A stretch of DNA of 64,000 nucleotides from Candidatus Hydrothermarchaeum profundi (GTDB lineage Archaea; Hydrothermarchaeota; Hydrothermarchaeia; Hydrothermarchaeales; Hydrothermarchaeaceae): the NCBI GenBank assembly GCA_002011125.2, contig MTMF02000009.1, positions 1,448,989 through 1,512,988 on the forward strand, written 5' to 3'. Made by a program: the position numbers and the translations under genes. The notes under the pieces are model-generated. The model did not search any database. It was given only the letters and a program-made list of their open reading frames with translations, and had not been told where the DNA came from. Positions 28,693 through 33,430 of this stretch are shown here, in pieces (the stretch's first letter is position 1; every line of letters starts with the position of its first letter).

Positions 28693-29280
28693 ATGTTGAG
28701 TTCTAGATTTAGAAATTATATAGAGTACTTTATTATTCCTGTCGCAAAGCTAATAGCTAAATCGCGTGTAAGCCCAAATAGTCTTACTACAATAGGATTT
28801 ATTGTAAGCATATTTGTTGCGGTCGCTTTTTTCTATAATAACTTAACTGCGGCTTTTTTATTTCTTCTATTAACATCTTTTTTTGATTTACTCGATGGGG
28901 CAGTTGCAAGAGTTACTGGAGGCGTAACCAAGTTTGGAGGTTTTTTGGATTCAACGCTCGATAGGTATTCTGATTCAGCGATATTGATAGGGATCGCATT
29001 TTTCTTAAAGAATTTCTACTTTTTGATATTCATAGTTTTAATAGGCACTTTCCTTGTGAGTTATAGTAGAGCTAAGGCGGAAGTGTTTATTAATAAATGT
29101 GATATAGGATTTGCGGAGAGAGCTGAGAGATTATTACTGGTAACGTTTGTTACATTTCTTTCTGCGTACAAAATTGTTGAACCAAAAGAGGCTTTTTTTG
29201 TTGTTCTAATATTTCTAGCTGTTATAACCCATTTAACCGTTTTTCAGAGAATACATTATACATACAAACTATTGAGATAG
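28693..29280 (+). CDS. CDP-alcohol phosphatidyltransferase, probable archaetidylinositol-phosphate synthase
   Basis: DLLDGAVAR...GGFLDSTLDRYSD signature, RAER motif, near ino1. Confidence 0.85.
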   Translation: MLSSRFRNYIEYFIIPVAKLIAKSRVSPNSLTTIGFIVSIFVAVAFFYNNLTAAFLFLLLTSFFDLLDGAVARVTGGVTKFGGFLDSTLDRYSDSAILIGIAFFLKNFYFLIFIVLIGTFLVSYSRAKAEVFINKCDIGFAERAERLLLVTFVTFLSAYKIVEPKEAFFVVLIFLAVITHLTVFQRIHYTYKLLR

Positions 29281-29571
29281 TTTTTCCACCATCTTATTCA
29301 GATATTTTACTCCCTCTTCAAGAAGATTTTTACCTTTTTCGGTAATGTAGTAATACTTCTTATTTTCTTTTTTTTCTCTTCTTACATAACCAGAAGTTTC
29401 AAGCCGGTATAATACTACATAGGGTGTAATTAATGCTGGTTCAAAATCAAATTTCTTTTTCAATTCTTTTTTTATTTCATACGCGTACATCTCTTTATCC
29501 GCTAGAAGTTTCAATATGTATATCCACAATATTTCTTTCGTAGTTTTTACCTTAAGTCTCTCCAGAGGCAT
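29269..29571 (-). CDS. PadR-family transcriptional regulator
   Basis: YAYEI...PYVVLYRLE..G...KKYYYITEKG. Confidence 0.88.
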   Translation of the reverse strand: MPLERLKVKTTKEILWIYILKLLADKEMYAYEIKKELKKKFDFEPALITPYVVLYRLETSGYVRREKKENKKYYYITEKGKNLLEEGVKYLNKMVEKLSQ

Positions 29572-29637: not shown

Positions 29638-30720
29638 ATGGGGAAAAAAAAGGTAAGAGTAGGAATCATCGGGATAGGAAACTGTGCGTCTGCACTTGTT
29701 CAAGGAGTTGAATTTTATAAAAACACTTCTGATGACGAGTTTATTCCGGGATTGATGCATCCAAAATTGGGCGAATATCATGTAGGGGATATAGAATTCT
29801 CTGCAGCTTTTGATATAGATAAAAATAAGGTTGGCAAGGATTTAAGCGAGGCTATTTTTACTAAACCAAATAATACATATAAATTTTCTGATGTTCCAAG
29901 ATTGGATGTTCCAGTTCAACGCGGCATGACACACGACGGTTTAGGAAAATACCTATCGGGAGTAATAGAGAAACATCCTTCGCCTACGGTTGATGTAGTT
30001 GATGTACTGAGAGAAACTAGAACCGATGTAGTAGTAAATTTTCTGCCCGTGGGAAGCGAATTCGCAACGAAATGGTATGTTGAGATGGCATTAGAAGCAG
30101 GATGCGGTTTTGTTAATTGTATACCCGTCTTTATTGCAAAAGAAAAGAGATGGCAAGAACTCTTTGAAAAAAAGGGTCTACCAATAATAGGAGACGATAT
30201 TAAAAGTCAAGTTGGAGCTACCATTGTTCATAGAGTGCTTGTAAATCTTTTCAGCAGTCGAGGAGTAAAACTCTTAAGAACATCTCAGTTAAATGTTGGA
30301 GGAAATACAGATTTTTTAAACATGCTTGAAAGAGAACGATTAGAGTCTAAAAAGATATCAAAAACTACTGCGGTTTCTTCTCAATTGCCCTACACTATTG
30401 CAGAAACAGATATACATATTGGGCCTAGTGATTATATCCCTTGGTTGTTAGATAGGAAGTGGGCATATATCAGATTAGAAGGAAGTAGCTTCGGTAATGT
30501 CCCTTTGAATATAGAATTAAAGTTAGAGGTCTGGGATTCTCCAAACTCGGCAGGCGTAGTAATAGATGCTATAAGATGCACAAAAATTGCAATCGATCGT
30601 GGTATAAAAGGGGTTTTAAAAGGCCCCTCTGCATATTTTATGAAATCCCCGCCTGAACAGTTCTCTGATGATACTGCACGCGAGATGGTCGAAGATTTTA
30701 TTAAAAATAAAAAAAATTAA
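29638..30720 (+). CDS. ino1: myo-inositol-1-phosphate synthase
   Basis: [36 protein letters not shown]. Confidence 0.95.
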
Positions 30721-30905
30721 GTTTCATAATGGTGTACTGTATTTACATCATGCTTACTAGAATTACATTTTAATAATCCTTGATTTTCTAGGTACTCTAT
30801 AGCTTTTAAAACCTTTTTGGGACTCACTAATATTTCAGACGCGATATCAGTAGCGCTACGTGGTCCTCTTTTAAGTAATCTTAATACTTTTTCTTCAACT
30901 CTCAT
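30717..30905 (-). CDS. Small HTH protein
   Basis: GPRSATDIA...[14 protein letters not shown] winged-helix pattern. Confidence 0.65.
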
Positions 30906-31455: not shown

Positions 31456-32619
31456 CTACACAATGTAGTCTATCCCTAAGTCAGCCATAACTCCCTGTGG
31501 CTTTGGTTTTTCTGTTTTTCTGAAATGCTTGTTCTGGAAATTGAATGTGCCGACTCTTCTGTTTAGTGTCATCCTCTTGGGAATCTGAATATCCTCTGGT
31601 CCCAATATGTCTGGAGAGGTTACTCCAGTCATAATTACCATTACTTCTACCCTGCCATTGTAACTTGGATCTATTCTTGCGCCCCATATGACATTAGAAT
31701 CATCCTGTAAGTAACCTGTAGCGATCTCTCCGATTCTATTAGCCTCAGCAAGACTCAAATCTTCTCCACCAGTGATATGCACTAAAGCTCCAAACGCTCC
31801 CCTATAGTCTACTTCTAATAAGGGATTCTCAAGTGCATGAGTTACAGCTTCCTCAGCTCTATTTCTTGAGTCTGATTCACCGAGTCCAATCATAGCTATT
31901 CCTCTACCCGACCCTTCTTTCATAACAGATCTTACGTCAGCAAAATCTAAGTTAATCAAGCTGGGAGTTGAAATAGTCTCGGTTATTCCTTTAACCATTC
32001 TCGCTAAAACTTCATCAGCTACTCCGAATGCATCTTCTATTGGGAGATCGGGAACATAGCTTAGTAGCTTATTGTTATCTATGACTACAACGCTATCACA
32101 TGCCTTTCTAAGATTAGTTAGTGCGGTATGACTTTTGAGTATTCTCGCTCTTTCAATCTTAAAAGGCAACGTAACTGCCCCGACTACTACGGCTCCATTA
32201 CTTTTTGCAACTTCGGCTACAATAGGTAAGCTGCCTGTGCCAGTTCCTCCACCTAAACCCCCTGTTACAAAAACTAAGTCTGCTCCTTCGACTATTTCTT
32301 TTAATGCAGGTTTTGCTTCTATAGCAGATTGCTCTCCCACTTCAGGATTTCCGCCGGCTCCCAGCCCCTTGGTTAAATCATATCCTATGAGAACTTTCTT
32401 GTCTGCTTTAGTGACTGCTAAATGTTGTTTATCTGTGTTCACCGCTATTAGCTGTGCTCCTTTCACGCCGATATGTGAAAGCCTGGTTATAGTGTTATTT
32501 CCAGCACCTCCACATCCTATTACTAATATTTTGGCTTCACCAATCTCGGTCTCGGAGACTGGTTTTGCCCTATTTATTATCTGGTTGTTCTCCATCGCTT
32601 TTCTAAATATAGTTTCCAT
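31456..32619 (-). CDS. ftsZ: Cell division protein FtsZ (FtsZ2-type)
   Basis: GGAGNN, NTDKQHL, GGLGGGTGTG, INLDFADV, C-terminal LGIDYI; not in the secE-spt5 context typical of ftsZ1. Confidence 0.95.
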   Translation of the reverse strand: METIFRKAMENNQIINRAKPVSETEIGEAKILVIGCGGAGNNTITRLSHIGVKGAQLIAVNTDKQHLAVTKADKKVLIGYDLTKGLGAGGNPEVGEQSAIEAKPALKEIVEGADLVFVTGGLGGGTGTGSLPIVAEVAKSNGAVVVGAVTLPFKIERARILKSHTALTNLRKACDSVVVIDNNKLLSYVPDLPIEDAFGVADEVLARMVKGITETISTPSLINLDFADVRSVMKEGSGRGIAMIGLGESDSRNRAEEAVTHALENPLLEVDYRGAFGALVHITGGEDLSLAEANRIGEIATGYLQDDSNVIWGARIDPSYNGRVEVMVIMTGVTSPDILGPEDIQIPKRMTLNRRVGTFNFQNKHFRKTEKPKPQGVMADLGIDYIV

Positions 32620-32636
32620 ATTCGCTTTTACCCCCT

Positions 32637-32841
32637 TTGTGAATAAGTGAACAAATATTGTGAATGTGCCCCTATATAAATCTTTCTATTTTATTTTTTT
32701 TTATAAATTAAATGTTAATAGACGTTAAATTTCTTATTCACATGATAATAATTGAATTATAATATGAAAAGATATTTATATGCGGAAATTTTTGTATACA
32801 TAGTTGTGAATAAAAAAATAATCTGGTGATATTGTGAATAG
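32637..32841. promoter_or_regulatory. Divergent promoter region with repeated TGTGAATA-like boxes
   Basis: Boxes at 32637, 32645 (variant), 32658, 32734 (inverted), 32804 and 32832; TATA boxes at 32673-32680 (-) and 32775-32782 (+). Confidence 0.7.
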
Positions 32842-33430
32842 CTATGAAGAGTATATCCTTATAAATCTTGAGGCAGAAGATAGGTTTGGAAGTTCTTCTA
32901 TTACTCTCGAGGGCTTAGATTATGGGGATGCTTGGGAAGAGATAAAAAACCATCTAAAATTTTTATATCAAACAGAAAGATTCGTCGATATCACACTATC
33001 AATAAAAATTAAGGAAGAAACAACTAAAACCATTCAAAGAAAATTAAAAAATGTTGGATATAGTAAAGCAAAAGATGCAATAGCAGGGTTTTTAAAATAT
33101 GCTTATAGAATTGAAGATGAAACGCTACTATTACCTGCAATTGAATCTCCGATAGAGCCAATTTTTGGAGAATCAAGCTGGCTTTCTAATTATGATCTTG
33201 AAAATTTAACTCAAAAAGAAAAAGTATTTTTGCTATTAAAATACAATCATCCTGGTCATTGGGTGAAATCGCAAGAACTTCAAAAGGAATATAAGATTGT
33301 ATATGGAGAACAAATAAAACTTAGCTCCCTTTCAACATATTTGGCTAGATTCTACGAGAAAGGCAGTTTAGAGAGGAGGGGCAGTAGAGCACAGAGAGAA
33401 TATCTACTTAAAGCAGCTTCAAGTTTTTAA
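32834..33430 (+). CDS. Hypothetical protein with C-terminal winged-helix domain, putative regulator
   Basis: SD GGTGAT before GTG; C-terminal LTQKEKV...KSQELQKEY...LSSLSTYLARFYEKGSLERRG...REY. Confidence 0.7.
   Translation: MNSYEEYILINLEAEDRFGSSSITLEGLDYGDAWEEIKNHLKFLYQTERFVDITLSIKIKEETTKTIQRKLKNVGYSKAKDAIAGFLKYAYRIEDETLLLPAIESPIEPIFGESSWLSNYDLENLTQKEKVFLLLKYNHPGHWVKSQELQKEYKIVYGEQIKLSSLSTYLARFYEKGSLERRGSRAQREYLLKAASSF

Follow-up and report, generated by a model that had tools for sequence, protein, structure and literature searches.

We report that the intergenic region between the division gene ftsZ2 and a divergently transcribed gene for a 198-amino-acid (aa) winged-helix protein in Candidatus Hydrothermarchaeum profundi carries a cluster of short DNA boxes with the core GTGAA, and we propose that these boxes are probably operators through which the 198-aa protein represses both ftsZ2 and its own gene. 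The window analyzed here is a stretch of 64,000 nucleotides (G000:C9:1448989-1512988) from a genome of 2.19 Mb (G000) with a GC content of 39% and a completeness of 97.65%. The cluster occurs at this locus only within the genome, the position of its boxes is conserved in related genomes, and the pairing of the two genes recurs across most of the phylum Hydrothermarchaeota. The identity of the binder and the sign of its action are predicted from sequence context and a structural model. Little has been established about how archaea that divide by FtsZ control the timing and the amount of their two paralogues, which gives a candidate ftsZ2-specific circuit its interest.

The box cluster between ftsZ2 and its divergent neighbor

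The proposed target of regulation, ftsZ2 (31456-32619, minus strand; 387 aa), matches the Pfam families Tubulin (8e-41) and FtsZ_C (5e-33) and scores 397 bits against TIGR00065 ftsZ. The candidate regulator gene (32834-33430, plus strand) is an open reading frame (ORF) with a GTG start at 32834. The two genes are divergent and are separated by 214 bp with a GC content of about 22%; the slightly longer 222-bp stretch used for counting (32620-32841 of the window, or G000:C9:1481608-1481829) has 22.5% GC. There are two FtsZ genes in the genome. The other copy lies directly upstream of nusG and the gene for ribosomal protein L11 and matches the M. jannaschii "FtsZ homolog 1" with 441 bits, versus 329 bits for the window copy. 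On this gene order and these scores, the window copy is therefore the FtsZ2 paralogue. PMC9871819 describes ftsZ1 neighborhoods as made up of conserved protein synthesis genes and ftsZ2 neighborhoods as usually including a gene of the RHH_1 family.

Direct reading of the sequence recovers every one of the six boxes claimed by the earlier note, each in its place: TTGTGAATAA at 32637-32646 and again at 32804-32813, AAGTGAACAA at 32645-32654, TTGTGAATGT at 32658-32667, the inverted TTATTCACA at 32734-32742, and TTGTGAATAG at 32832-32841. Both core promoters can be read in the same way. That of ftsZ2 (32673-32686, minus strand) combines GAAAG, which resembles a transcription factor B recognition element, at 32686 to 32682 with the TATA box ATTTATATA at 32681 to 32673, whose core is TTTATATA (32680 to 32673, minus strand). 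That of the winged-helix gene (32767-32782, plus strand) combines AAAAG at 32767-32771 with the TATA box TTTATATG at 32775-32782. Archaeal TATA boxes lie at about -30 to -23, the start being 30 nt from the TATA 5' edge, and transcription is therefore predicted to begin near 32650 for ftsZ2 and near 32805 for the winged-helix gene.

Three boxes follow the ftsZ2 TATA box and precede the ribosome-binding site of the gene (GGGGGT, 32630-32635, minus strand), with cores that begin at 32639, 32647, and 32660 and are thus spaced by 8 and 13 bp. Box 1 (GTGAATA, 32639-32645, plus strand), the first of the pair spaced by 8 bp, would occupy about +6 to +12 of the ftsZ2 transcript as predicted from the TATA box. 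Box 2 (GTGAACA, 32647-32653, plus strand) lies over the predicted start, which falls inside it, and box 3 (GTGAATG, 32660-32666, plus strand) lies between the TATA box and the predicted start, at about -16 to -10. Box 4 is inverted (32735-32741, minus strand; TATTCAC on the plus strand) and stands between the promoters, some 40 bp upstream of the winged-helix gene TATA box. On the side of that gene, the predicted start just precedes box 5 (GTGAATA, 32806-32812, plus strand), and box 6 (GTGAATA, 32834-32840, plus strand) contains the GTG start codon of the 198-aa ORF. We add a degenerate seventh box, GTGATAT (32826-32832, plus strand), which lies 8 bp before box 6, falls outside the strict motif score, and overlaps the Shine-Dalgarno sequence GGTGAT (32825-32830). 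The claim of the earlier note that boxes lie downstream of both TATA boxes, three of them on the ftsZ side, agrees with this reading.

The boxes follow the consensus W-GTGAA-Y-R, derived from 13 lineage representatives, whose 55 boxes have T (34), A (20), or G (1) before the G. WGTGAAYR occurs six times in the 222-bp stretch, whereas 20,000 dinucleotide-preserving shuffles of that stretch averaged 0.088 copies and never gave more than 3. The AT-rich background, against which the earlier note had asked for the motif density to be checked, therefore does not explain the cluster. Genome-wide, the motif occurs 408 times (0.187 per kb), with 56 occurrences in the 237 kb of noncoding DNA left by a crude ORF mask (0.236 per kb). 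At least three copies per 100 bp are found only in the ftsZ2 intergenic region of the 2.19-Mb genome, which is also the only noncoding place with two copies within 40 bp, the other four close pairs being inside ORFs. The exact word TGTGAATA occurs 10 times in the window, versus 2.57 expected, and none of 100 shuffles reaches 10; of its 92 occurrences on both strands of the whole genome, 4 fall within 196 bp at the ftsZ2 locus. A motif-blind control identified 24 places of about 1 kb, genome-wide, in which any 8-mer has at least four nonoverlapping copies per 200 bp, and these are mostly A-runs or repeat arrays.

The wider regulon hoped for by the earlier note did not materialize. No GTGAA or TTCAC lies within 250 nt upstream of sepF or ftsZ1, and the genome-wide scan with WGTGAAYR yielded no second box cluster. 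Single boxes within 120 nt of ORF starts make up 53 box-gene pairs with no common theme.

Several further repeats were recorded in passing. Outside the cluster, TGTGAATA stands at window positions 1443, 1866, 4973, 6405, 34306, and 38449, six copies against an expectation of about 2.6 in the whole window, with no pattern; at least the copy at 1443 is on the GTG-AAT start of an ORF. Elsewhere in the genome, a GTGAA-AAA-GTGAATA pair with 8-bp spacing (G000:C9:77358-77372) lies 85 nt before a 647-aa ORF with a P-loop-like start, apparently inside the end of the preceding ORF. The other clusters of an 8-mer at four or more copies per 200 bp include G000:C6 0-1 kb and C9:317 kb, which resemble repeat arrays and hold over 20 such words, and C3:1 kb, C8:132 kb, and C9:788 kb, which are short clusters of words such as TGTATCAA, ACTCCAAA, and TTCTGCAA.

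Conservation of the boxes and of the gene pair

A single-sequence search detected the 198-aa protein in 33 of 41 related genomes, and a profile search found exactly one copy in 30 of the 32 phylum genomes that are at least 80% complete, the misses being G024 (98%) and G011 (81%). G024 also has no FtsZ above 54% identity to the window copy, a joint absence that may equally be an assembly gap. In a large protein collection, the protein is represented by 104 clusters, of which all named ones are called "hypothetical protein" and none has a Pfam domain; the lineage names given for them below phylum level are Candidatus Hydrothermarchaeota, Hydrothermarchaeales, or Hydrothermarchaeaceae. Divergent adjacency to ftsZ2 is found in 26 of the 30 loci of relatives (18 among L002-L020 and 8 among L105-L113). 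Two of the remaining four loci are cut by contig ends (L015 and L106), and the other two, in family f11 (G035 and G037), are adjacent to no ftsZ. The compared loci come from eleven of the twelve sampled families of the phylum, the twelfth being f11, in which the genes are not adjacent. Families f5, f8, and f9 have a short form of the protein (146-157 aa) that lacks the first beta-beta-alpha unit.

Footprinting was performed on 19 intergenic regions, including that of the window, using unbiased 7-mer counts with expectations taken from flanking DNA. TATA 7-mers are present in all 19 regions, with cgaaag-n-tttatata in most, and the promoter word of the winged-helix gene, aaaag-n-tttatatatgc, recurs among relatives. 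Directly behind the TATA words in sharing rank stand TGTGAAT (34 occurrences versus 1.15 expected, in 18 of 19 loci) and GTGAATA (33 versus 1.09, in 15 of 19). On the ftsZ2 side, at least two GTGAAY words lie within 75 nt before the ATG in 18 of the 19 loci, and three do so in 7 loci under this strict word. The sole miss, L017, results from an offset in the projected ATG, and TGTTCAC and TATTCAC are visible in its sequence. In each of 8 further loci, from three other families, two or three boxes separate the TATA box from the ACCCCC block. This block is located on the plus strand 8-12 nt before the ftsZ2 ATG in most relatives and is replaced by CCTCC in two. The layout is that of a pair at 7- to 8-bp spacing with a third box a further 10-14 bp on, and the TATA-proximal box starts 5-9 nt after the TATA box in relatives.

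On the side of the winged-helix gene, at least one GTGAAY lies within 110 nt before the start in 16 of 19 loci and at least two in 12 of 19. Several relatives carry a GTGAAYA box just before the ATG of this gene, overlapping ribosome-binding sites of the GGTGA type; such a box may also serve as the ribosome-binding site, which makes this subset less clear-cut. A box upstream of the winged-helix gene TATA box, as box 4 is in the window, is also present in L002, L007, and L012 and is less conserved than the others. Repeated sites over or downstream of both core promoters, the arrangement of an operator pair, are thus found at 18 of 19 plus 8 of 8 loci for ftsZ2 and at 16 of 19 for the regulator gene, and the conservation in relatives that the earlier note had named as a check holds for box position. 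Orientation is less constrained: the ftsZ2-side boxes read as in the window in 9 of the 19 loci, inversely in 9, and in mixed orientation in 1, and in L105, L110, and L112 the TATA-proximal box alone is inverted.

The ftsZ2 intergenic region of the window contains no ORF of at least 50 aa. Downstream of ftsZ2, three small ORFs and the 62-aa ORF at 30717-30905 gave no RHH_1 match. The latter (minus strand) is a small winged-helix gene with weak matches of the TrmB/ArsR type, and a second one, also downstream of ftsZ2 at 29269-29571 (minus strand), encodes a 100-aa PadR-family protein; no GTGAAYA boxes are linked to either. Apart from these, one of the two loci in which the homologue is not beside ftsZ (L102, G035:C180) carries TTGTGAAATGTTTRAGTTATA twice in direct orientation, at a distance of about 75 bp, roughly 60-150 nt before the start of the homologue, which may be a diverged operator of that lineage.

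The 198-aa protein and its wider family

Sequence comparison alone does not place the 198-aa protein in a known family. It matches no Pfam family at E values up to 0.01 and no NCBIfam at E values up to 0.1, a profile of 17 sequences found nothing among PDB sequences at E values up to 1, and no profile of the named winged helix-turn-helix families (MarR, ArsR, TrmB, PadR, BlaI/MecI, Fur, and others) matched above threshold. The ESM Atlas returned "hypothetical protein" clusters only, with scores of 0.87-0.89. An AlphaFold2 model with a mean predicted local distance difference test score (pLDDT) of 83 divides the protein into a beta-beta-alpha-beta-beta-alpha domain (residues 7-90), a disordered linker (residues 95-113, pLDDT below 50), and a C-terminal domain of three helices plus a wing (residues 115-192). 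The elements of the latter are helices 127-138, 146-157, and 163-176 and strands 179-182 and 189-192, with block-mean pLDDT values of 89-96 over residues 121-190, and the model thus shows the three-helix bundle followed by a beta-hairpin wing that defines the winged-helix fold class.

Structural comparison bears out the claim of the earlier note that the divergent gene encodes a winged helix-turn-helix protein, as far as the C-terminal domain is concerned. With VIA-align, residues 120-198 best match Fur (9ire_B; Z 10.2, root mean square deviation [rmsd] 2.5, 70 aligned residues); 36 chains reach a Z of at least 8, and those listed are mostly winged-helix domains. The best Foldseek match is the RosR-DNA complex 6qfd (E 3.4e-3), and RosR, Fur, MecI, and F93 are matched with a probability of 1.00 at E values of only 3e-3 to 3e-2. 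The winged helix of Pyrobaculum Cdc6 (1fnn_A) is found by Foldseek with an E of 1.6e-2 and 32% identity over 80 columns; ORC/Cdc6 chains stand at Z 8.0-8.2 among many other winged helices in VIA-align, and Pfam Cdc6_C does not match the 198-aa protein. The N-terminal domain, modeled alone with a pLDDT of 89.5, best matches tombusvirus p19 in VIA-align (1r9f; Z 7.3, rmsd 3.0, 87 aligned). Its best Foldseek match has an E of 1.8e-2 and a probability of 0.25, and the weak matches include Mago, PUR-alpha, and p19-type proteins built of a sheet plus helices. As modeled, this domain has no clear structural relative, which does not by itself demonstrate a new fold.

The C-terminal domain is shared more widely, being common to about 280 sequence clusters (278 at E values up to 1e-3). 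Loci of distant homologues were collected with a single protein (P0129) and a five-sequence alignment (A4). The members from Methanosarcinales have one or two beta-beta-alpha units, a long linker rich in Q and P, and the same winged helix. The 38 distant relatives yield marginal matches to Penicillinase_R, HTH_24, or MCM_C only, the sole match that reaches its curated cutoff being Penicillinase_R in P0126 (24.3 bits versus 22.6). None of 64 Methanosarcinales loci is beside ftsZ within 1.5-kb flanks.

The Methanosarcinales homologues (L038-L099) show a feature of their own about 100 nt before the start (e.g., L047:1420-1490), where two tandem hairpin-like words, CCATTGTCTGAGGGGATGAATGG and a close repeat, stand just before the ribosome-binding site. 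The tandem is kept in Methanolobus, Methanococcoides, Methanohalophilus, and Methanomethylovorans. It has no Rfam match, and a single-sequence fold gives two small hairpins with a z-score of only -1.5; it may be an unrecorded leader element.

Proposed repression, rival explanations, and known systems

We consider it probable that the boxes are operators of the neighboring 198-aa protein and that this protein represses ftsZ2 and itself. In the proposed mechanism, each GTGAAYA box would be an operator half-site read by one C-terminal winged helix, and several protomers would be joined through their N-terminal domains, with the disordered linker providing reach. At ftsZ2, the protomers would fill the two or three boxes that separate the TATA box from the ribosome-binding site, and they would also fill the boxes around the start site of their own gene; once bound, they would block recruitment of RNA polymerase. 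Control of the FtsZ2 paralogue would then take the form of a local negative-feedback circuit. With a disordered linker between the DNA-binding domain and a putative oligomerization domain, box spacing and orientation would be free to drift. We infer that the neighbor is the binder because it has a winged-helix fold, because its recognition-helix-to-wing stretch (LSS.STYL.R...G..R.G.RAQ.EY) is near-invariant in 17 sequences, in keeping with the invariant GTGAA core of the boxes, because boxes lie on its own promoter, because the two genes are paired across most of the phylum, and because no other cluster exists in the genome. A regulator with a single target region is most simply the protein encoded there.

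A weak hint of coupling between protein and box comes from L016 (G012:C64), which has 9 GTTAAY against 2 GTGAAY and a wing motif of RRGTRAQ, with T in place of S, and could represent a change of specificity; L013 and L014 also have T in RRG(S/T)RAQ, with 3 GTTAAY. Several points weigh against the proposal as a whole. This covariation is thin, since three loci of the S type also have 3 GTTAAY and the palindromic GTTAAC counts twice. Winged-helix dimers mostly read inverted repeats, and direct repeats at 7- to 8-bp spacing are unusual. Ribosome-binding sites may account in part for the boxes that lie closest to the winged-helix gene start codon. The compared genomes are kin, so that the locus counts are not independent and overstate independence. 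In G035 and G037, where the gene is not beside ftsZ, no GTGAAYR cluster precedes it. Lastly, 20 dereplicated Methanosarcinales loci contain GTGAA 18 times versus 10.4 expected (1.7-fold) in 11 of 20 loci, which is not convincing, and self-regulation through this box is therefore not general in the wider family. Because the Methanosarcinales loci and G035/G037 lack an ftsZ neighbor or a box cluster, the combination of boxes and ftsZ2 is a property of the main Hydrothermarchaeota clade and not of the whole family.

A more speculative extension, to which we give a small chance, is that the 198-aa protein is a sensor of the division state, its N-terminal domain binding FtsZ2, a ring component, or a cell cycle signal and thereby freeing the winged helices from the boxes. 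If so, homeostatic feedback acting at the ftsZ2 promoter would set the FtsZ2 level, the phylum as a whole would have an archaeal counterpart of CdrS/CdrL that derives from an unrelated protein family, and the relatives in Methanosarcinales and Bathyarchaeota would constitute a new class of regulators.

Two rival accounts appear unlikely, and about equally so. In the first, the boxes are real operators of another DNA-binding protein encoded elsewhere, and the neighbor does something else; this would fit the homologue in G035/G037 with its missing box cluster, and the link between protein and DNA here rests on sequence context. However, the cluster is found at this locus only and covers the promoter of the neighbor as well as that of ftsZ2, and boxes and gene pairing travel together in all 26 informative adjacent loci. 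In the second, the neighbor binds the boxes but serves as an activator or dual regulator, for instance through box 4 or through an effect on the shape of the AT-rich interpromoter DNA. Archaeal regulators that switch sign with the position of their site are known, and box 4 (32735-32741) lies upstream of both TATA boxes. CdrS activates ftsZ2 in Halobacterium (PMC7439475). Set against this, the conserved boxes are those downstream of the TATA boxes, and the upstream box is shared by only three relatives among the first 19 loci (L002, L007, and L012).

We regard it as very improbable that the boxes act in RNA, as elements of the 5' leader that fold into a structure or are recognized by an RNA-binding protein. 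Of the three ftsZ2-side boxes, two do lie inside the predicted leader, as do the boxes of the other gene in theirs, but the TATA-proximal box lies before the predicted start, and the transcripts would contain GUGAAU or AUUCAC depending on the lineage. Since the boxes keep their place between TATA box and start while their orientation flips, they are sites for a protein on DNA and not an RNA signal. No Rfam match was obtained at E values up to 1 for L001, L047, or L038.

A replication origin or an element resembling DnaA boxes, with repeats fitting TTATNCACA, has next to no probability. The 9-mer TTATTCACA at 32734 does fit the bacterial DnaA-box consensus as quoted by the earlier note, an AT-rich stretch lies between oppositely oriented boxes, and the Foldseek match to the Cdc6 winged helix 1fnn (E 1.6e-2) points the same way. 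Yet the genome, at 97.65% completeness, has no match to PF00308, its two Orc1/Cdc6 genes map to 482 kb and 1871 kb of the contig and the ftsZ2 locus to 1481 kb, and the cumulative GC-skew minimum is at 480 kb. Beside the 482-kb orc1 lie different 19-nt repeats, TATTTCCACTGGAAATTTG, that resemble origin recognition boxes (ORBs) and not GTGAAYA, and the boxes at ftsZ2 take their register from the TATA boxes rather than from an unwinding element. We therefore rejected an archaeal origin at the ftsZ2 locus, and the likeness to DnaA boxes is coincidental, as the earlier note had presumed: there is no DnaA-family match, and the probable origin, with other repeats, is about 1 Mb away. Chance clustering in AT-rich intergenic DNA, for which only the 22.5% GC of the region speaks, is refuted by the 20,000 composition-matched shuffles, none of which exceeds 3 boxes against the 6 observed, and by the conservation of the boxes in relatives.

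Two observations concern replication in their own right. The TATTTCCACTGGAAATTTG repeat has two perfect 19-nt copies 45 bp apart (G000:C9 ~484056-484119; L021:2889-2952) at the GC-skew minimum, and this site beside the 482-kb Orc1/Cdc6 gene is probably a replication origin with ORB elements. The ftsZ2 locus is about 60 kb from the cumulative GC-skew maximum (1540-kb bin), near the likely terminus side of the contig.

In full-text searches of the literature outside subscription journals, the only archaeal division regulators to come up were CdrS/CdrL and aCcr1, and no paper among those listed, as judged from titles and beginnings of abstracts, deals with a winged-helix gene facing ftsZ2 or with division control in Hydrothermarchaeota. 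CdrS and CdrL are haloarchaeal ribbon-helix-helix proteins, and cdrS lies upstream of ftsZ2, is cotranscribed with it, and encodes its activator (PMC7439475). As described in PMC7439475 and PMC8406309, they resemble the circuit proposed here in two ways: a dedicated transcription factor stands beside ftsZ2 and acts on it and not on ftsZ1 (as is predicted here), in a pairing conserved in the lineage, and CdrL binds the promoter of its own locus, just as boxes here lie on the promoter of the winged-helix gene. In contrast to these small ribbon-helix-helix proteins, the 198-aa protein has two domains, a winged helix and a doubled beta-beta-alpha unit, and whereas CdrS shares an operon with ftsZ2 and activates it, the gene here is divergent, its boxes are in repressor position, and no ORF separates the promoter from ftsZ2. 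The protein thus does not belong to CdrS/CdrL. Where an RHH_1 gene is usual beside ftsZ2 (PMC9871819), Hydrothermarchaeota have the 198-aa gene at that place instead.

The small repressor aCcr1 of Sulfolobales (PMC9976878) likewise acts on division genes through a short conserved promoter motif; it is, however, a ribbon-helix-helix protein of an ESCRT/Cdv division system with many target promoters, in contrast to the one locus here. Bacterial DnaA boxes share with TTATTCACA only the fit to a consensus, for here there is no DnaA and no origin, and the boxes are in promoter register. Archaeal winged-helix repressors that act by promoter occlusion, among them Halobacterium RosR (6qfd) and the MarR, ArsR, TrmB, PadR, and Lrp types, share with the proposed circuit the fold, sites just downstream of the TATA box and over the start, and the arrangement of a divergent, self-regulated gene. 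The 198-aa protein differs from them in lacking sequence membership, in having an N-terminal domain with no clear structural relative, and in its sites, which are two or three single boxes, direct or freely flipped, rather than one palindrome.

Because the 7-bp box and the promoter layout are defined and the protein is small and looks soluble, the claim is testable without culturing the organism, and the locus gives a first clue to the function of an unannotated winged-helix family that comprises about 280 sequence clusters. Taken together, and as far as sequence can show, the comparisons support a circuit of a familiar kind, in which a repressor controls its own gene and a divergent neighbor from operators at their paired promoters; the protein family used here appears to be undescribed. 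The ftsZ2 locus would thus offer a second solution for ftsZ2-specific control, unrelated to CdrS/CdrL, across most of an uncultured phylum.

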